34,225 bases of DNA from positions 1 to 34,225 of IMG/VR virus record IMGVR_UViG_3300032136_000014; one strand, written 5' to 3'. The notes under the pieces were generated by a model, which was not told the origin of the DNA, did no database searches, and was given only the letters and a program-made list of their open reading frames with translations. A program made the position numbers and the translations under genes. Position 1 is the first letter of the stretch. Each line of letters opens with the position of its first letter. Below are positions 1,027-28,036 of this stretch, piece after piece. The stretch is from a virus (lineage: Duplodnaviria; Caudoviricetes).

Positions 1027-1524
1027 TTACAGCGCGTGCGATCCGATCTGCACTTCCATCTGGATCTTCAGGAAGTCAGAGTCCTGCAAGGTGGAGGCCA
1101 CCGAGTTTACCACGTTGAGGATCTGGCCCTGCCCGCTGCTCGCATGATTGACCGAGGCCCCAGACGCCAGTGCGACGCCGGTCAGGCCATCGGTATTGCC
1201 CGCCCAGGTAGCAACCAGGATCGCAACCTCATTGGAGCTGGTCTGCGTGGCGGCGATCTTCCGGTCTACCTCCCCGAAGTTTGAAGACCCAAGCGACGCG
1301 GCAGCGGTCACCGTACCCACTGCGAGGTACAGGAATGCCGATTGTGCGTTACTGGTAGTCATGGCGGCGAGCTGGTTCAGGCCTCCCGCGATCATGGTGT
1401 TCTTTACCCGGTGCGATTCCACCGATCCATCGGCCCGCGTGATCTCAAAATCCCATACGGCCGATACCGATACGTTGTTATCGCCGTAGAATGCCTCGAC
1501 GATGTCACTCGGTTTCTTACTCAT
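1027..1524 (-). CDS. Putative virion structural protein (collar/fibre-attachment-like beta protein)
   Basis: Ser/Thr/Ala-rich 165 aa with a VKNT...GLN...YLAVGT...EVDRK pattern reminiscent of tail-collar fibre domains; overlaps the stop of the glycosyltransferase gene. Confidence 0.5.
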   Translation of the reverse strand: MSKKPSDIVEAFYGDNNVSVSAVWDFEITRADGSVESHRVKNTMIAGGLNQLAAMTTSNAQSAFLYLAVGTVTAAASLGSSNFGEVDRKIAATQTSSNEVAILVATWAGNTDGLTGVALASGASVNHASSGQGQILNVVNSVASTLQDSDFLKIQMEVQIGSHAL

Positions 1525-4504
1525 AGCTGCTCACCCTCTCGTGAAGTACTGCATTGACAAATTGCTTGGCGTCTTCTTCGTTAAAGAATACCCCGGTCAC
1601 AGGTGCGACATTCTCGACGGCGGTGCCGCCTAATTGTTTACTGGTATCGAGCTTGAACGAGCATTCAAACCCGCCCCCAAGCACGGCTACCAATCGGCTG
1701 TAGAACGGCAGGCCGTCCACCAGCATCTTGATCTGCCCGGCCTCCATTAGGTCGGACCACATCTCAATCCCCTCTCGGGCGCGCTCGCGCATGGCCTCTG
1801 TAGGCTGGCCTCCCGTGCGCTCAAGCTCGTAACCGCACATCTGCGATATGTCGCGCATCCAGAGAAACTTACCCAGCCAGCGAGCCGGATACTGCTCTCG
1901 ATCACGGGCCATCAAGGTGATGTTGCGATCAAAGCGACCGCGCCGGATCTCCTCATTCAGGTAGCCGGTGTGCATGATATCGACCCCGGCCAGGGTCTTT
2001 GCATAGCCGACTCCTTTGTTGATCTCGCGCTCGGGATGCTCATGGACCACGCCGTAGAACCTGATCCCCTTGCGATTGCGGAACAGCCGTACCGGAAAGT
2101 CAGTCTTGAGAACGCCCAGGGGCTCGACAGCAAAGTGATGCTGCGGGATGCCGAAGCCGGTCCAGCCGTTCGGCTTGAGTACGCCCAGGAGCCGCTCAGG
2201 GTAGCTGACCACCTCGTCGGCATCGATCCACATGATCCAATCTCCTGACGCCTTGCTGATCGATTCATTGCGGGCGGCATCGAAGCCGATCTCGGTGACC
2301 GGGGCGCTCAGCTCCATAGTTCGGACTATAGGCCAGAGAGGGCACTCCTCCTCGAAAAGGTCTACGGCGCTCAGAGTCTCCCCGTTGTCGCTTGGATCAA
2401 TTGCGACGATGACCTCGTCGACCACACCCTTGACAGAGCGCAGGGTACTGAGCAGGGATGCCTCGCCGTTCTTCACAATCATGCAAAGGCTCAGGGTCTC
2501 ACGACCTCCGGCGTATCTGATCTTGCGCTCTATGTCTATCTTGCCGACCTCTTGTTCGGGATCGCATCGGAATGAGTAGACATAAGACCCAATCGCTTCG
2601 CCCTGGTAGTTGCCCGCTGGCACGCAGGTGACCCCGAAGCCCTCGAAGTGCCCGTACATGTCGTGAAGGTCGGCCCGTTCAAAGTGCCAGAGGTGCGCGC
2701 GCCAGGGATAATGTTCCTCATACCCAATCGCTTCCCAGGGGCCGTAAGGGGTGGTAATGATCATCTGCCCGCTCGGCGCATACTTCATCAGGGTATCAAC
2801 GTGACCACCGGGGTCACCGACATGCTCCAGGACCTCGGCTGCGATCACCGCATCGAACAACCCCAGGTTGCTTGTCGGGCTGATCATAGTAAGGGCAGCA
2901 TCAACAGCGGCAACGTGGAAGGATACATTTTCGATGCCCTCGTCGGCCGCCCATTTCTTAGCGGTCTTGATATTGGAGGCGGTGATGTCGATTCCGACGA
3001 ACTCGAAGTCAGGGAACCGCTTGGCCAGGGCGATGGTGTAGTGCCCGTGCGCACATCCGTAGTCCAGAACTCGAGAACCTGCCGGCAGCGCAGCGACGCT
3101 TGCAGCCACCACCTCGAAGCGGTCGTTGCCTTCCATCTCCTCAGGGCCGTAGATCGCCCCGCGCTCTTTCTCATAGGCGTAGTAGTTCGCATAGTGCTCA
3201 GCGAACCTGTCTTTAAAAGCGAAGGAATAACACTCTGAGAGCTCGGTTATTGTTCGGCTGAGAATCGAGCTGGGAACCCCCGTCTTCGAGAGTATAGATC
3301 TGGCAGCGTAGATGTCGCTGTTGCGAACCATTGACCGGGCAATCGCCGCAGTCGAGAATCGAGAGAACACCCACTCTATACGGTACAGGAGGCGATCAGC
3401 CGCAGCTTCCCAGGAATACGTCGAGGCCGTGTCTCGCTGCAGGTGACCCATGGTGATAAGGTCATACTCCTCCCCGTCGTGCATCTCGATCAGGGTCTCG
3501 ACAAACGCATCCTCATCTACTTCGCCATCCTTCAGGTCCAGCAGGATCGACCCGTCCGCATGCATGCAAGTTTCTGGCAGAGCGGCTGTGCTGCACGACA
3601 AGAACGGCAGGGCCGCTGCCATGCACTCCATGGCCGTGATGCAGCTCACCTCGGGAAAAGTGGTTGGGTATACGTGGCAATCAGCATGCTCCTGCAAGAT
3701 CGCCAAGTCCTGCTTGCTCAAGGCCCCCAGGTTGGTGACGTTCGGCAAGGCCTCGCAGGCGCGCCAGAGCATGCCATAGTAATCGGCCATCTGCGGGGTT
3801 GTGTTCTCGTAGCCGCAGACCGCGAGCTTGAAGTGATACCCGGCCTCCCAGAGCCGGTGCATGATGCCGTTAGGCTTGACCAGGTGTTCCAAGCCGCGCT
3901 CTGGCCGAGAACTGTAGGTGAGCACCAGCTCGTTTGTCTTCACACCGTCAAGGAACTCGCACAGCTTTTCCTTCTCAGGGGCCGGCGGGGGGTCGCGGTT
4001 ATACAAATCAAGATCGATGCCATTGGTAATCGGCATGACGATGTCAGGGTCGACGCCCCAGGTCTTAACGATCTCCTGCTTGTGGAACTCGCTGACTGTG
4101 AGAATGCCCTGGATGTTGTAGAGCACCTCGAAGACCAGACCCTGCTGCTCCTTGTGCGGCATGTCGTGAAGCCAAAGCAGGTTGACCTTGGATGCCCACT
4201 GATACCGGAACGCGCCGGGGGCTCGCTGGATGATCAGCACATCGCTCGGCGTATTGGATGCGTAGTAGTGGAAGCTCTCGCCGAGAGGATGTTCCTCCGA
4301 GGGCTGGCCGGCAGGGACATAGCGAACGCCGTCCCACTCACCGCCCTCTGGATGGTTTGTGAATAAGGTAACCCGGTGCCCTTCCGCTGCCAGCGACTTG
4401 GCCATGTAGTATGCCGCGCTCTCGGATCCGCCCAGGGATTTTGTCTTGATGGTCTCGCCGTTGAAGGGGAGTCCACCGCAGTGCATGATAATGAACAGAG
4501 ACAT
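1517..4504 (-). CDS. Tri-domain GT4 glycosyltransferase / class I SAM methyltransferase / GT2 glycosyltransferase
   Basis: N-term GT4: LGGSESAAYYMAKSLAAEGHRVTLF, LWLHD, E-x7-E (EVSCITAME). Middle: VLDYGCAHG, VGIDI, AAEVLEHV, IITTP. C-term GT2: LSLCMIVKN, FDAARNESI, IDADE (DxD), GVVHE. Confidence 0.9.
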   Translation of the reverse strand: MSLFIIMHCGGLPFNGETIKTKSLGGSESAAYYMAKSLAAEGHRVTLFTNHPEGGEWDGVRYVPAGQPSEEHPLGESFHYYASNTPSDVLIIQRAPGAFRYQWASKVNLLWLHDMPHKEQQGLVFEVLYNIQGILTVSEFHKQEIVKTWGVDPDIVMPITNGIDLDLYNRDPPPAPEKEKLCEFLDGVKTNELVLTYSSRPERGLEHLVKPNGIMHRLWEAGYHFKLAVCGYENTTPQMADYYGMLWRACEALPNVTNLGALSKQDLAILQEHADCHVYPTTFPEVSCITAMECMAAALPFLSCSTAALPETCMHADGSILLDLKDGEVDEDAFVETLIEMHDGEEYDLITMGHLQRDTASTYSWEAAADRLLYRIEWVFSRFSTAAIARSMVRNSDIYAARSILSKTGVPSSILSRTITELSECYSFAFKDRFAEHYANYYAYEKERGAIYGPEEMEGNDRFEVVAASVAALPAGSRVLDYGCAHGHYTIALAKRFPDFEFVGIDITASNIKTAKKWAADEGIENVSFHVAAVDAALTMISPTSNLGLFDAVIAAEVLEHVGDPGGHVDTLMKYAPSGQMIITTPYGPWEAIGYEEHYPWRAHLWHFERADLHDMYGHFEGFGVTCVPAGNYQGEAIGSYVYSFRCDPEQEVGKIDIERKIRYAGGRETLSLCMIVKNGEASLLSTLRSVKGVVDEVIVAIDPSDNGETLSAVDLFEEECPLWPIVRTMELSAPVTEIGFDAARNESISKASGDWIMWIDADEVVSYPERLLGVLKPNGWTGFGIPQHHFAVEPLGVLKTDFPVRLFRNRKGIRFYGVVHEHPEREINKGVGYAKTLAGVDIMHTGYLNEEIRRGRFDRNITLMARDREQYPARWLGKFLWMRDISQMCGYELERTGGQPTEAMRERAREGIEMWSDLMEAGQIKMLVDGLPFYSRLVAVLGGGFECSFKLDTSKQLGGTAVENVAPVTGVFFNEEDAKQFVNAVLHERVSSYE

Positions 4505-23596: not shown

Positions 23597-24241
23597 ATGA
23601 ATATTGCTGTGAAGAAGTTGATGGACCATGCCATCAACGTGGTGAGTAAAAGTGAAGGAAGTGCGAAGGACTTACGCATAGCTGTTGTTGAGCAGATTGA
23701 TATCAGGCTCGGCAGTCGGCTGCCAGCTGAATTGTTAGAGCTCGTAAAGGAGCTCGACATCAACGTCGGGTCTAAGGTAAAGCTCGGCGACCTTCTGTCA
23801 AAAGTGAAGGCCGCTGTCTTTAAGGAACTCCGTGTAAAACAGTTCCCCGATGGTGACTTTAGCATCCTGAGGGACTCCCCCATACCTGTGCCAGAACCTG
23901 TAATGACTAACCAAGAGGAAACTACCATGCCTGCAAAATCCACCAGTAAGAAAAGCGCAAAGAAGTCAGCGCCCCGCAAGACCACCGGCCGTACTACCGG
24001 CTCGCGTCTGTCCACCTACAGCCTTGGCATTACGAAAGCCCAGCTGAAAAAACTTGAAGGCTATTCTCCGCAAGCCCTGGGCATCATGCAGGCAGTTTCT
24101 GAGTGTGGCGGCAAGAACGTCGATCGTCAAGACCTGCTGGCGTCGATGCCGAACTACGTGGAATCCAAGCAGCCCATGAGCTCCATCCTGTCATTCTATC
24201 AGAAAAAGCTCATCGCCGATGGTCTGCTGAAGGCCGAGTGA
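23597..24241 (+). CDS. Putative DNA-binding protein with Lys-rich segment; probable internal start at 23927
   Basis: Open 214-aa frame; strong internal RBS (AAGAGGAAACTACC-ATG) before MPAKSTSKKSAKKSAPRK. Confidence 0.6.
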   Translation: MNIAVKKLMDHAINVVSKSEGSAKDLRIAVVEQIDIRLGSRLPAELLELVKELDINVGSKVKLGDLLSKVKAAVFKELRVKQFPDGDFSILRDSPIPVPEPVMTNQEETTMPAKSTSKKSAKKSAPRKTTGRTTGSRLSTYSLGITKAQLKKLEGYSPQALGIMQAVSECGGKNVDRQDLLASMPNYVESKQPMSSILSFYQKKLIADGLLKAE

Positions 24242-24263: not shown

Positions 24264-24290
24264 AGCCCGGCGATAAGCCGGGCTTTTTAT
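24264..24290 (+). terminator. Rho-independent terminator
   Basis: AGCCCGGC-GATAA-GCCGGGCT followed by TTTTAT. Confidence 0.8.
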
Positions 24291-24307: not shown

Positions 24308-25114
24308 ATGTCATCGATAAGAAAGCGTCTGGAAGTCAACGCCAATGACTCCAAGAATACCAGAATGGATATTGCAGGAGCCGGCTACTACGGCGATTTC
24401 CGCGCTGATATCCTGGCCCATATGAGCCGCTTCAGTAAGATTGCACAGCTGATGGTGGAGGAGGCCAAGCGACTTGGCCGGCCGCTCTCGCTGCTGGACA
24501 TCGGATGCGGCGGAGCTTTTCCCATCAAGGTGCTGTACAAGGCTTACGTAGTGCGTAAGGCAGAGATCGTCAAGAGCTATCGCGGCATCGACATCGACCC
24601 GGTGGTGCTGGAGCTCGAGGATGAGTTCGCCACCATGATGAAGACTATGAATATGTCCATCGACATCCAAGACCTGACGGTCGACCCAGAGATCAAGCTG
24701 AAGCGATCGTCAGTTGACTTCTTCTGGACAACGGAAGTTATCGAGCACATGAAGCCGGAGTTTATCGCACCCTGGTTGGACGAGGCGCACCGCGTTCTCA
24801 AGAAGGGTGGACTGATCTACGTGTCGACGCCGAACCATGACGGCAGCAACAAGAAGCTGCCTGAGGACCACGTGTACGAATGGGGCTTCGAGGAGCTGAA
24901 GACCGAACTCACTAAACGGTGGAAGCTGCAAGAGGTCACTGGCACCTTCATTCAGATACCGAAGTTCCGCGCTGCTAACCGTAAGCATGGCCGTATCCCT
25001 CAGGAGTTGGTCGACGCGTATACAGCTCGGTTTGACGGTAACTGGCTGCGCAATGTCTTGGCAGCACCATACCCTGAGTACGCTAACAATTGTGCGTGGA
25101 TCCTGCGCAAGTGA
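24308..25114 (+). CDS. Class I SAM-dependent methyltransferase (small-molecule/O-methyltransferase type)
   Basis: LLDIGCGG, YRGIDID, TEVIEHM, RVLKKGGLIYVSTPN, HVYEW; no DPPY/NPPY or PC DNA-methylase motif. Confidence 0.88.
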   Translation: MSSIRKRLEVNANDSKNTRMDIAGAGYYGDFRADILAHMSRFSKIAQLMVEEAKRLGRPLSLLDIGCGGAFPIKVLYKAYVVRKAEIVKSYRGIDIDPVVLELEDEFATMMKTMNMSIDIQDLTVDPEIKLKRSSVDFFWTTEVIEHMKPEFIAPWLDEAHRVLKKGGLIYVSTPNHDGSNKKLPEDHVYEWGFEELKTELTKRWKLQEVTGTFIQIPKFRAANRKHGRIPQELVDAYTARFDGNWLRNVLAAPYPEYANNCAWILRK

Positions 25115-25986
25115 TAGCCTACCAACCGCTTCTGCAGTGGATGCAGGAGCGGCACTCCATATACCTACGGCGAGCCGAAGGGAAGCCGGCTCCGTGGACC
25201 GACGATCCTATTTTGCAGTCTTACAGGTTTACGAACGTGCGTCGTGAACTAGACAAGGTGAGTGTGGATCTCATCAACATTCTAAACAATCACCACGACG
25301 CACCTGACGATCAAATACTATTCAATATTTTAGTTTACCGAATCTTCAACCTGCCACACGTGTACCGAACGCTAGCAGGGTCAAAGGTATGGATCACACG
25401 CTGGAGACCAAACCAAGCTATCGGTAGGTTGTCGCTCCTACAGGATCAGGGTAAGCGCATCTTCACTGGAGCATACATGATGAACGCAGTCGGCAGTGAC
25501 GGCCAGCGTAAACACATCATGTACGTAGATCGACTATCCATGATGTACAGAGATCGTAAACTTGTCGTAAGTGCCATACGGCGGCACAATAGCATTCAGC
25601 ATGCCGTTAACCTTCTGTCTCAGTACCGAAACATTGGTCAGTTCGTAGCCTATGAGTTTGCAACAGACCTTACCTACACTTCGATACTCAGCAGAGCTGA
25701 CGACCTCTATACGTGGGCAAACCCTGGTCCCGGTGCAAGTCGTGGTTTGTGCAGACTACTTGGTCGGCCCGTTAAGTTGAACATGAAAGCAGAGGAGGCG
25801 GTACCTTATATGCAAACCCTTCTCAGTTGCATATCTCGGGACGTGCCTGCAAGCTTCTGGGGTAGGCGTCTTACCATGCGCGATATTGAGCACTCTCTAT
25901 GCGAGTTCGATAAGTATGAGCGAGTGCGGTTAGGCGAAGGTAGGCCGCGTGCTAAGTTCAGAAAAGGAAAAGGTAAAGAAAAGTGA
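25111..25986 (+). CDS. aGPT-Pplase1 / 5-hmdU DNA kinase helical-domain family protein (DNA base hypermodification)
   Basis: ERHSIY.RR..G.P.PWTDDPIL..YRFTNVRRELD, YRIFN, FTGAY, GQFVAYEFATDL, GPGASRGL, DIEHSLCEFDKY; start GTG 25111 (GTGA overlap). Confidence 0.85.
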   Translation: MIAYQPLLQWMQERHSIYLRRAEGKPAPWTDDPILQSYRFTNVRRELDKVSVDLINILNNHHDAPDDQILFNILVYRIFNLPHVYRTLAGSKVWITRWRPNQAIGRLSLLQDQGKRIFTGAYMMNAVGSDGQRKHIMYVDRLSMMYRDRKLVVSAIRRHNSIQHAVNLLSQYRNIGQFVAYEFATDLTYTSILSRADDLYTWANPGPGASRGLCRLLGRPVKLNMKAEEAVPYMQTLLSCISRDVPASFWGRRLTMRDIEHSLCEFDKYERVRLGEGRPRAKFRKGKGKEK

Positions 25987-26990
25987 AGACATTTACAGTG
26001 AGAGATACAAACGAAGCCATGTACCCTGTATACAGCTATCTATGGTTGCATGGCGTTAAAGAAGACAGCAGAAACGGTCTAGTGCTACGTGCCCCGGAGC
26101 CGGTGACAATCACCTACACCAATCCACTTGATCGCGTGAACCTCTCTTCAATCCGCGATGCTAACCCTGCATTTCACTTACTTGAAGGTGTGTGGATGTT
26201 GTCCGGCTCTAACAGGCTGGCCCCAATAGCCAGGATCGTGCCGACTATCACTGACTATAGCGACGACGGTGAAACAAGTAACGCCGCTTATGGTCACCGT
26301 GCCATCAACCACTTCGGGGTTGACCAGCTAATGGAAGTTGGGTCACTACTGCGGCATGAACCGTTGAGCAGGCAGGCAGTGGTACAGCTTTGGGATGCGG
26401 CTGATTTAGTGAAGAGTACTAAGGACAAGGCTTGCAACATGCAGTTGGTGTTCTCATTCAACGCACGAAGCAATCAGTTAGATATGCTCATCTACAACCG
26501 AAGTAATGATGCGGTGTGGGGCGGTGTGTCCGGCGCTAACGTGGCGCACATGCCGTTCTTTCTGGAGTACGTTTCTAGGATAGCCGGCCTTTCCCCAGGT
26601 AGTATTACGGTGGTCAGCGCTAACTTGCACATGTACTTAGACAATCCGAAAGTGGAAAAGCTTCTGGACCACTACACCTCCAACCTATCGGACGAGCCGT
26701 ACAAGCAAGGTATCGTGCATCGTTTGGATCTATTTCAAGCCCATGAGTCATGGATGTCCTTAGAGCGCAATGCCAAGAATATCTGCAATTGGTTCGAAAA
26801 GGCACGCACTGATCTGGCACTGCCAATTGTGGAGAATAACTTTCTTCAATTCACGGTAGTTCCTTTGCTTGCCAGCTGGCTAACGCACAAGAACGGTAAC
26901 ACTAAGCAGGCAATATCGAAGTGCAGCAACATTGAAGCTAGCGATTGGCGCAAGGCCATGGAGTTGTGGCTCTACAGGAGGTTGCCATGA
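25983..26990 (+). CDS. Thymidylate-synthase-fold enzyme, probable dUMP hydroxymethylase
   Basis: SRNG, YGHR, SRQAV, catalytic C in DKACN, RSND..WG....AN (Asn at the dUMP-specificity position), NLHMY. Confidence 0.8.
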   Translation: MKTFTVRDTNEAMYPVYSYLWLHGVKEDSRNGLVLRAPEPVTITYTNPLDRVNLSSIRDANPAFHLLEGVWMLSGSNRLAPIARIVPTITDYSDDGETSNAAYGHRAINHFGVDQLMEVGSLLRHEPLSRQAVVQLWDAADLVKSTKDKACNMQLVFSFNARSNQLDMLIYNRSNDAVWGGVSGANVAHMPFFLEYVSRIAGLSPGSITVVSANLHMYLDNPKVEKLLDHYTSNLSDEPYKQGIVHRLDLFQAHESWMSLERNAKNICNWFEKARTDLALPIVENNFLQFTVVPLLASWLTHKNGNTKQAISKCSNIEASDWRKAMELWLYRRLP

Positions 26991-27493
26991 AGTCACTACA
27001 ATTCTGCTTAGCCGGTGGTAATGTTATGCGGTACCACACCCACGCACATACAGCTCGCCATCAGACCGTTGCTGAACACAGCTTCCGCGCCTACCACGTA
27101 GCCATGTACTTGACAGACGGTGACGTTACACCGAATGTTGTGCATGAACTACTGCACCATGATGTTGCTGAAGCCTACACCGGAGACACGCCTTACCCGG
27201 CCAAGAGGTCTTCTTCATCGCTGAAAAAAGCACTGGACAAGTTAGAGGCGTCGAAACGTACCGAGTACAATCTTTATTTTCCCATATCGAAAGCTGATGA
27301 GAAGTTTGTGAAGCTCTGCGACATGGTAGAGATGGGCCTGTACGCTACTGAGCAGGTTGAAGCCGGTGCTAAACAATATCAAGGTGTGGTCGATAACGTC
27401 TTAGAGTGGTTAGACCTAACTACCCACAGTCTCGATGCAGACATCGCATTGAGGTTGCAAAAACTCTACAACTACATGAGGACAGTAAAGTGA
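26987..27493 (+). CDS. HD-domain deoxynucleotide phosphohydrolase (YfbR/DatZ-like)
   Basis: RYH, QTVAEHSF, LHHDVAEAYTGD.P.PAK, VKLCD; start ATG 26987 with AGGAGG RBS. Confidence 0.85.
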   Translation: MKSLQFCLAGGNVMRYHTHAHTARHQTVAEHSFRAYHVAMYLTDGDVTPNVVHELLHHDVAEAYTGDTPYPAKRSSSSLKKALDKLEASKRTEYNLYFPISKADEKFVKLCDMVEMGLYATEQVEAGAKQYQGVVDNVLEWLDLTTHSLDADIALRLQKLYNYMRTVK

Positions 27494-27912
27494 GAGCCAA
27501 CGATATTCAAGTTGACGGAAACCACTACCAGAAAGGCACGCTTCAGCATTGGGATGTGATGATCATTATGAGAACGCACTACATGCCCGGCTGTGCATCG
27601 AAGTACCTGCTGCGACACCAGGACAAGAATGGTCTATTAGACCTGCAGAAGGCGCAGCACTTCCTGCAGAAGATGATAGAGTGTGCCGGTGAGTACTTTC
27701 GACCGAATGAAAATTATCAGCCGATATTGGTTGAAGGGCTTTTGGCTACCCACGGCACACCGCCTGCACTGCACTCAGTGATCCGGGCGATTCTTGACCC
27801 TAAGAAAAGTGTCGGTGAACTAGAGTTGGCCAGTATACAGCTAACCGACTACGTGGCCGGTTACGAAGCAGATGAGTGTGACGCCACTCACAGGTACACC
27901 AACCAGGGTTGA
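27490..27912 (+). CDS. DUF3310 family protein (T7 gp1.7-like putative nucleotide kinase)
   Basis: ANDIQVDGNHY, KYLLRHQDKNGLLDLQKAQHFL; start GTG 27490 (GTGA overlap). Confidence 0.8.
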   Translation: MRANDIQVDGNHYQKGTLQHWDVMIIMRTHYMPGCASKYLLRHQDKNGLLDLQKAQHFLQKMIECAGEYFRPNENYQPILVEGLLATHGTPPALHSVIRAILDPKKSVGELELASIQLTDYVAGYEADECDATHRYTNQG

Positions 27913-27938
27913 GACGGCCGGCTGTAAGCGCCGTGGCG

Positions 27939-27968
27939 GGGCGGTAGGGGTGTGGGCGGTAGGGGTGT
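27939..27968 (+). repeat. Tandem 15-bp repeat GGGCGGTAGGGGTGT x2
   Basis: Read directly in the convergent intergenic gap. Confidence 0.85.
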
Positions 27969-28036
27969 GGAGGCTACCAAGAGATCGCCTTACCTGCGTA
28001 AACTGGGCCGGCCAGCTTAGGCGATCACACCCCTAT

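Follow-up and report, generated by a model that had tools for sequence, protein, structure and literature searches.

The operon and its genome context

The window, i.e. the whole stretch of 34,225 nucleotides analysed here (IMG/VR record IMGVR_UViG_3300032136_000014), is a fragment of a phage genome, with a CheckV completeness of 78%. Its operon starts with a gene for a class I SAM-dependent methyltransferase (MT; 24308..25114), assigned from Pfam matches (Methyltransf_31/11/23, best E 3e-11), an AF2 model, fold searches and alignments. The second gene (25111..25986) encodes aGPT-Pplase1 (PF18723 HMUDK_hel, E 1.6e-62), with an invariant E260-x3-C264 and a helix-hairpin-helix fold; the aGPT-Pplase name is reportedly due to Iyer et al. 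2013. The third (25983..26990) encodes a thymidylate synthase (TS) homologue (PF00303, E 2e-17) with a dUMP hydroxymethylase signature. Then follow an HD-domain 5'-deoxynucleotidase, YfbR-like (26987..27493; PF12917/PF13023, E about 1e-8), which shares cluster and position with PaMx11 gp52, and a DUF3310 protein (27490..27912; PF11753, E 3e-5, 24.4 bits versus a cut-off of 24), a homologue of PaMx11 gp53 in which no kinase domain was seen. An ORF check places all five genes on the plus strand at these coordinates. They are chained, as the preliminary description had it, by four 4-bp overlaps (GTGA at 25111 and 25983, ATGA at 26987, GTGA at 27490), an arrangement present at only 2 of the 18 other listed same-strand junctions of the replication arm, for which gene starts are approximate. 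Longer upstream starts are possible for three ORFs (25090, 26945, 27406); the profile matches, however, set in at the start codons within the overlaps. Between the MT gene and the upstream gene for a basic protein lies a terminator-like hairpin with a T run (24264..24290, plus strand), of a class that is not above chance in the window (4 sites found versus 3.7 expected in shuffles).

The operon occupies the slot after the helicase gene, as in phages AXL3 and PW916. The backbone of the window is AXL3-like, its polymerase having its nearest cultured counterpart in AXL3 (37% identity) and being 26% identical to that of PaMx11. Both ends of the fragment fall inside the minus-strand arm of virion genes, so the missing part likely holds neck and tail genes. 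An MT identical in sequence is encoded by a record on a 42,261-base contig. The replication arm of Pelagibacter phage HTVC023P is similar; no cassette is annotated there between helicase and polymerase, and no MT match was found. Among palindromes, only CTAG (0.54) and TTAA (0.71) are low in the window.

The TS homologue is 35–37% identical to PaMx11 gp51. It has the TS fold and its Cys (C151), and comparison with published residues (PMC13326640) shows Asn at the position specifying dUMP (N186, equivalent to Asn177), Asp in place of L143 (D148) and retention of Asp169 (D176). The D169N substitution of 5-hydroxy-dCMP synthases (RB69, DLP3) is thus absent. Every complete TS ORF in the MT set (77/77, counting that of the window) shares this Asn and Asp. 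From these residues the protein is likely a dUMP hydroxymethylase and the cassette of 5-hmdU type. The HD enzyme likely removes dTMP from the pool. In marine relatives, HD (1/80 loci) and DUF3310 (0/80) are not conserved partners.

Kinase and transferase genes

The window had been described as lacking a 5-hmdU kinase or ADDT, and neither was found in this 78% complete record by a Pfam family search and our own profiles (hmmsearch --max). A strict Walker A pattern also gave no match in the window, but this is a weak test that missed even the primase and terminase. Furthermore, 5-hmdU kinase, AADT (aGPT-Pplase2, PF18724) and TAGT were absent from all 24 MT-bearing genomes searched, 19 of them at least 90% complete. 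These genomes form one related marine group, other than the phage of the window, and the near-complete ones have MTs that are 51–56% identical. The kinase search recovered 3/3 positive controls; as a second check, hmmsearch --max was applied to 4 of the 24 genomes as well as to the window. The 25 MT records, of which the window is one, gave no TAGT (PF20691 glycosyltransferase) match, with 8/8 controls recovered. The Pfam whole-genome ADDT search missed the known divergent ADDT of locus L294, so these negatives are not absolute.

The earlier proposal of a distinctive kinase-free cassette stands only in part. The window and the 24 genomes lack kinase and AADT, but kinase-free aGPT-Pplase1 occurs also with TAGT (57 of 80 aGPT-Pplase1 loci; eight such genomes have no kinase); kinase and MT are the partners at 8 and 7 of these loci, respectively. 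Nor does MT always exclude the kinase/AADT pair: distant MT homologues lie beside a kinase and an ADDT at L287, L288 and L294, and beside a kinase at L293. With such mixed clusters (L287, L294) and a record only 78% complete, a canonical kinase/AADT or glycosyltransferase pathway could lie in the missing fifth of the genome, or a 995-aa glycosyltransferase-MT encoded in the window (1517-4504) could act on DNA, the cassette MT merely tailoring the product. We consider this very unlikely indeed: the gap probably corresponds to neck and tail genes, the near-complete genomes with related MTs lack these genes, and the 995-aa gene sits after the major capsid gene.

Linkage of the methyltransferase to the cassette

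Conserved linkage of the MT to the cassette was borne out. Among viral loci (best 80 of 128), aGPT-Pplase1 lies downstream of MT in 80/80 and TS is present in 78/80; the counts are 74 and 68 for 79 metagenome loci with MT, many of them short. Backbones differ among MT loci, and at L177 and L193 the gene order is aGPT-Pplase1, TS, MT. The MT is absent from all 18 records with TAGT, with a kinase or from cultured reference phages, SPO1 among them. On a quick tree (70 rows), MT-linked aGPT-Pplase1 requires at least three label changes; a branch with support 88 sets the 12 U-type MTs apart from the rest. The MT family is phage-enriched, with mostly viral Atlas neighbours. The single match in prokaryote genomes, on a 5-kb contig of a Maricaulis MAG, has a marine phage layout, and no cellular role was seen.

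At AXL3-type loci the MT family occurs without aGPT-Pplase1 (0/27), next to a TS with Asp (26/27, one TS being out of view). As the MT accompanies a hydroxymethyl-pyrimidine synthase even there, it appears to follow the synthase. This bears on the possibility that the MT methylates some other target (a protein of the phage or its host, an RNA end or a cofactor), the DNA containing only 5-hmdU and T. Such a role would fit a generic class I fold, the activity of Hen1 itself on RNA ends and the fact that HD and DUF3310 are not conserved as partners in marine relatives. We judge it distinctly improbable, however, since the MT excludes TAGT and, whatever the backbone or gene order, keeps a pyrimidine-modifying synthase of one or the other specificity as its neighbour.

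The most divergent MT branches are covered by five contigs only. Five distant MT loci are kinase-bearing or could not be assigned, and 3/5 also carry a transferase. An inositol-1-phosphate synthase is encoded at L287 (in full) and L288. For the MT homologues at kinase/ADDT loci, a transferred adduct would be a natural substrate.

A Hen1-like metal site in the methyltransferase

The MT is a single domain of 268 aa with the SAM motif DIGCG and D95 (AF2 model pLDDT 90). DNA C5, N6 and N4 methyltransferases have PC or (D/N/S)PP(Y/F) as catalytic motifs. Neither occurs in the 268 residues, in agreement with the earlier designation of the enzyme as not of DNA type, and the five best Pfam matches listed are general class I families. 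Four ligands of a Hen1-type metal site (E143, E146, H147, H188; ligands from PMC10781085) are invariant in 52/52 aligned MTs. Hen1 chains came at ranks 2-6, 8 and 10 in a PDB sequence search with these ligands aligned, at E-values of only 0.002-0.009. In fold searches HEN1 (Z 15.5) was level with many small-molecule methyltransferases and below 4htf (Z 16.9). The motif ExxEH...TP...H is not diagnostic, being found in 109 of 115 full-length profile matches, weak ones included, and inside the unrelated 995-aa protein of the window. Pfam and NCBIfam searches of the MT gave no Hen1 family match (bacter_Hen1 included); it has no Hen1 accessory domain, and no Pnkp-type partner was found among its conserved neighbours. 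It lacks any additional DNA-binding domain, and basic character is not a constant feature: the median pI is 5.9 (n=52), versus 9.3 for six kinases. The predicted E/E/H/H site points to O-methylation. Hen1 chelates a vicinal diol (PMC10781085), whereas 5-hmU has none.

Possible roles of aGPT-Pplase1

The best structural match of aGPT-Pplase1 is PaMx11 gp46 (Z 11.6, rmsd 4.2, 226 aligned), a score that for a helical fold lies below the tool's caution line of about 13. Its Cys is invariant and of catalytic type, and the E260-x3-C264 spacing equals that of metal ligand and catalytic Cys in AADTs. Profile cross-matches between the two families are weak (E 4e-4 and 1e-3), profile-profile comparison with a four-sequence AADT alignment gave a probability of 1%, and Foldseek found no match at E<=0.001. 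Judging from the gp46 match and the weak cross-matches, aGPT-Pplase1 looks related to the AADTs. It also looks like an enzyme separate from the MT. The suggestion that it serves as the dedicated recognition partner of the MT appears unlikely, given the AXL3-type operons without it, its own invariant Cys and the lack of any MT/aGPT-Pplase1 fusion among 7,993 longer proteins scored, a weak test that gave two generic MT-glycosyltransferase matches. That aGPT-Pplase1 is itself the kinase was rejected, as the PaMx11 kinase is gp49 and the window protein matches gp50. aGPT-Pplase1 is present in SP10, PhiW-14 and ViI and absent from SPO1. One genome (G036) combines a D-type TS with a divergent aGPT-Pplase1, so the latter is not strictly tied to uracil.

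Although SP10 has clade 1 (aGPT-Pplase1) only, glutamylthymine is made there (PMC5889632, Table 3; PMC8989533), which would allow clade 1 to be a transferase. Together with the AADT-like fold and Cys, the diols bound by Hen1-type sites, and the MT homologues that adjoin ADDT, kinase and inositol synthase, this speaks for a pathway in which 5-hmdU first receives an amine, a sugar or a polyol as a small adduct from aGPT-Pplase1, with no kinase involved, and a larger base results once the MT has methylated this adduct. On balance we find this rather unlikely: known AADTs require a phosphate leaving group, AXL3-type operons have MT without aGPT-Pplase1 or ADDT, and in M6, gp55 is dispensable for the glycine adduct (PMC8989533).

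The MT takes the position of the kinase directly before aGPT-Pplase1, and in SP10 kinase and aGPT-Pplase1 are fused. Methylation, or transfer of a SAM-derived carboxymethyl or aminocarboxypropyl group, could therefore be an activation replacing phosphorylation, with aGPT-Pplase1 eliminating the group to leave plain thymine or a non-methyl adduct in the virion. Methyl ethers make poor leaving groups, aGPT-Pplase1 occurs with TAGT alone and the MT family without aGPT-Pplase1, all of which make this quite unlikely, even if the route from 5-hmdU to T in phage DNA is stated to be an open question (PMC5889632).

Proposed pathway and its significance

We favour, with a probability of about 0.5, a pathway in which the operon fills the phage DNA with 5-hmdU and the MT O-methylates the 5-hydroxymethyl group, yielding putative 5-methoxymethyl-dU with no kinase step. 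Methylated hmdU, predicted from the outset, remains the leading candidate product. From residues and synteny, the TS homologue would convert dUMP to 5-hmdUMP while the HD enzyme drains dTMP, and the family A polymerase of the phage would incorporate 5-hmdU, as suggested by M6 and SPO1 biology. A divalent metal held by the four conserved ligands may activate the hydroxyl toward SAM, by analogy with Hen1. Action on DNA is favoured over action on nucleotides because the MT fills the slot taken elsewhere by a DNA-level kinase or glycosyltransferase. Separately, aGPT-Pplase1 might attack C6 via C264, the best candidate reaction of this weakest step being conversion of remaining 5-hmdU to thymidine. 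The purpose would likely be protection from host nucleases. More broadly, and only as a doubtful extension, phage-specific Hen1-like metal-dependent O-methyltransferases might cap hydroxymethylated pyrimidines, producing two novel bases in natural DNA, namely 5-methoxymethyl-dU, present both in the window phage and across a widespread marine group, and 5-methoxymethyl-dC, present in cultured AXL3, with aGPT-Pplase1 as a kinase-independent enzyme converting 5-hmdU to thymidine in DNA.

Thymidine hypermodification proceeds via kinase and transferase in the pathways of PMC8989533, PMC5889632, PMC11472151 and PMC13458397; a one-step methyl cap, if true, would be a different chemistry. Our literature search found no description of 5-methoxymethyl-dU as a DNA base, and Iyer et al. 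2013 or supplements may mention a methylase neighbour. An enzyme methylating 5-hmU or 5-hmC would serve for labelling and mapping. Kinase-free cassettes isolate aGPT-Pplase1, which makes the 5-hmdU to T question directly testable, and AXL3 is a phage in culture that combines a sister MT with unexplained restriction resistance.

Comparison with known systems

Phages of the SPO1 type, with plain 5-hmdU, likewise replace thymidine via a dUMP hydroxymethylase, but have neither aGPT-Pplase1 nor MT. The RNA 2'-O-methyltransferases Hen1/HENMT1 share the class I fold and the metal site (E-x2-E-H ... STPN ... DH.(F/Y)EW) with the MT, at about 20% identity; their context is RNA repair, that of the MT nucleotide modification. 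The cassettes of aGPT-Pplase1, TAGT and TS, as in cultured phiJL001 (gp19, gp22, gp24), have the same kinase-free core plus one hydroxyl-modifying enzyme, a glycosyltransferase where the window has the MT; among the literature matches listed, no base measurement was found for phages of this type. Stenotrophomonas phage AXL3 and Pseudoxanthomonas phage PW916 have an operon of MT, NTP pyrophosphatase, dNMP kinase, TS and dCMP deaminase. The sister MT is 26% identical over the full length and keeps the metal ligands, whereas Asp marks the TS as dCMP type and aGPT-Pplase1 is absent. AXL3 DNA withstands 35 of 37 enzymes, namely the ones whose site contains G/C (PMC7504290), and this restriction resistance is all that is reported on its base. 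Finally, the M6/PaMx11 clusters (PMC5889632, PMC8989533) share aGPT-Pplase1, dUMP hydroxymethylase, HD enzyme and DUF3310 protein in the order of PaMx11 gp50-53; three of the four are 36%, 35% and 31% identical to their counterparts. They differ in having genes absent from the window in view (5-hmdU DNA kinase, AADT, PLP, radical SAM, FAD and acetyltransferase), while the window operon lies on another backbone and is led by a class I MT.

Organisation of the operon in the phage genome

The window is a tailed-phage fragment, 78% complete according to CheckV. Genes for terminase, a Mu-like portal, capsid and tape measure make up a virion arm on the minus strand; those for exonucleases, a family A polymerase and an SNF2 helicase make up a replication arm on the plus strand. 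As both ends lie inside the virion arm, the missing part probably carries neck and tail genes. The nearest cultured relatives of its polymerase are those of PW916 and AXL3 (37%). Directly after the major capsid gene, a 995-aa fusion of GT-B glycosyltransferase, class I methyltransferase and GT2 domains (1517–4504, minus strand) likely glycosylates virion proteins.

On the plus strand, the five cassette genes encode a class I SAM-dependent methyltransferase (MT, 24308–25114), an aGPT-Pplase1 protein (PF18723, HMUDK_hel; 25111–25986), a thymidylate synthase homologue (TS, 25983–26990), an HD protein (26987–27493) and a DUF3310 protein (27490–27912). Gene content, family assignments and the four joining 4-bp overlaps all agree with the preliminary description, and such overlaps occur at just 2 of 18 other junctions in the replication arm. 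A terminator-like hairpin precedes the MT gene, such sites being no commoner than chance in this region. Immediately 5' of the operon, 23597–24241 (plus strand) encodes a protein of 214 aa, part of which is rich in lysine and serine and for which a family search gave no match; in L247, an AXL3-type locus, MT is likewise preceded by a gene whose basic stretch looks similar. The gap between the operon and a convergent amidase gene holds a short G-rich direct repeat (27935–27972, ggcggtaggggtgtgg twice).

Conservation of the MT cassette

A scan of IMG/VR confirmed 128 MT relatives, and the best 80 of these (52–56% identity) were analysed. The linkage of MT to the cluster proved to be conserved: aGPT-Pplase1 is downstream at 80/80 of these best loci and TS is present at 78, the remaining two ending soon after aGPT-Pplase1. 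HD was matched at one of the 80 and DUF3310 at none. Matches to the 5-hmdU DNA kinase or amino acid:DNA transferase (ADDT, or AADT) of PaMx11 or Pam3 were found within 7 kb of MT at none of the 80. In a metagenome set of 79 loci, from which the window's own record was left out, aGPT-Pplase1 was present at 74 and TS at 68. In many marine relatives among the same best 80 of 128 (L006–L085), further genes lie near the cassette, upstream of MT: a 2OG-Fe(II) oxygenase at 46 loci and a pyrimidine dimer glycosylase at 39.

Profile searches bore out that kinase and amino acid:DNA transferase are both missing from the 78% of the genome in the window. Whole-record searches of 24 MT-bearing records (19 with a completeness of 90% or more) gave 0/24 each for kinase, ADDT and TAGT (PF20691 base J-type glycosyltransferase), while positive controls were detected. 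Because the Pfam ADDT search overlooked one known divergent ADDT, four genomes and the window were searched again with broader profiles and --max, which yielded nothing there beyond weak cross-hits to aGPT-Pplase1. The 24 genomes are not 24 independent cases, since they form one related marine group with a backbone unlike the window's (polymerase about 28% identical). We conclude that this is a genuine and conserved form of the 5-hmdU cassette that does without the kinase and includes a methyltransferase not yet characterised.

Predicted functions of the cassette proteins

The TS homologue carries C151 and an unchanged D176; its residue at the dUMP-specificity position is N186, and where the E. 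coli enzyme has L143 it has D148. N177 has been related to substrate, L143 to hydroxymethyl versus methyl product, and D169N to hydroxylases (PMC13326640). From these residues the protein reads as a putative dUMP hydroxymethylase.

The MT model (pLDDT 90) has a class I fold. It matches HEN1 with Z 15.5 (rmsd 2.8, 186 aligned), level with many small-molecule enzymes. When PDB sequences were searched, seven of the ten top places went to Hen1 chains, with weak E-values (0.002–0.009). In the alignment, E143, E146, H147 and H188 fall on the metal ligands of Hen1 (PMC10781085); all four are unchanged across 52 close homologues and retained in distant branches. The ExxEH...TP...H motif is unspecific, being present in 109/115 full-length matches and in the MT domain of the unrelated 995-aa enzyme. 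It supports a predicted metal-assisted hydroxyl methylation, not Hen1 membership. No fusion of MT with aGPT-Pplase1 was found among 7,993 scored candidates. The best reading of the product is 5-methoxymethyl-dU, to which we give a probability of about one half.

The aGPT-Pplase1 protein was also considered as a kinase. This was rejected, since the name of PF18723 comes from the helical part of SP10 gp186 and the PaMx11 kinase is a separate protein, gp49. The best structural match of the model (pLDDT 94) is PaMx11 gp46 (rmsd 4.2, 226 aligned), with a Z of 11.6 that is modest for a helical fold; HhH glycosylases come next. E260-x3-C264 is invariant (38/38) and has the spacing of AADT metal ligand to catalytic Cys (gp46 C247; PMC11472151, PMC13458397), and the protein may be a transferase. 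Our preferred guess is instead a reductase converting 5-hmdU to T. The family was found in SP10, PhiW-14 and ViI, whose virions contain T and lack 5-hmdU according to PMC8989533, and not in SPO1, a single negative case. The same source reports that the M6 glycine adduct forms without gp55. PMC5889632 describes the route from 5-hmdU to T as unknown and lists SP10 with clade 1 only.

Methyltransferase relatives in other gene clusters

Cultured matches to MT comprise only five records, namely AXL3 (Stenotrophomonas), PW916 (Pseudoxanthomonas) and two spring-water phages. There MT is the first gene of an operon that also encodes NTP pyrophosphatase, dNMP kinase, TS and dCMP deaminase (7989–12023 of L002, the AXL3 locus; also L247–L273). 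The TS carries Asp, the dCMP signature, in 26/27 loci, and aGPT-Pplase1 was found in 0/27. Four loci of the set (L262, L263, L270, L272) read RSND. These operons are annotated as ordinary thymidylate synthesis; a cytosine-replacement pathway is more likely. According to PMC7504290, 35 of 37 restriction enzymes fail on AXL3 DNA, all with G/C in their site. Since these sister MTs accompany a dCMP-type TS without aGPT-Pplase1, the MT family follows hydroxymethyl-pyrimidine synthases of either base. Every other enzyme of the AXL3-type operon works on nucleotides, and it is possible that MT also acts at that level.

In more distant loci, MT could act on an adduct. L287 (3944–12693) and L288 (280–4542) combine aGPT-Pplase1, MT, ADDT, a dual-specificity phosphatase, 5-hmdU kinase, Nmad1 and a UDG-polymerase A fusion with a myo-inositol-1-phosphate synthase, which is seen in full in L287; TS was not found in these two fragments. 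The cluster suggests an inositol-derived base modification. L293 has MT with a kinase, and in L292, a record 75% complete, no kinase or ADDT was seen. In L294 (4474–8148), ADDT, a 5-hmdU-kinase family gene and MT lie beside a dCMP-type (Asp) TS, and this complete genome also encodes a divergent aGPT-Pplase1 elsewhere; a kinase/transferase pathway on hydroxymethylcytosine is possible.

Comparison with related cassettes

In the literature searched, which took in few subscription papers and no bioRxiv supplements, we found no methoxymethyl bases in phages and no mention of this MT-led cassette. In PMC13229309, O-methyltransferases appear among the neighbours of phage dioxygenases, with no product given.

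Among the best 80 of 417 aGPT-Pplase1 loci, 57 have TAGT, eight the kinase and seven MT. The kinase is absent from the eight TAGT genomes searched, and MT from 18/18 TAGT, kinase or cultured reference records. The widespread kinase-free aGPT-Pplase1/TAGT/TS cassette (these 57 loci, within L086–L165, and L375, phage phiJL001) may give marine phages a glycosylated uracil resembling base J. In six further loci (L090, 5952–9943; L100; L109; L130; L148; L155), aGPT-Pplase1 is accompanied by a radical SAM/SPASM protein, an unassigned 350-aa protein or both, and MT, TAGT and kinase are all replaced; the window polymerase is 40% identical to that of L090.

A quick tree built from 70 aGPT-Pplase1 proteins requires four changes of the MT label, at least three of these being forced by well-supported branches; the window sits there on a long branch of unsure placement. 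The 12 MTs from uracil-type kinase-free cassettes lie on one side of a branch with support 88. Together, these trees indicate that one MT subfamily joined several distinct cores, including one with another gene order (L177, L193). In its choice of partners, MT resembles an exchangeable enzyme for modifying the hydroxyl. In the window, the last four genes of the operon stand in the same order as PaMx11 gp50–53.
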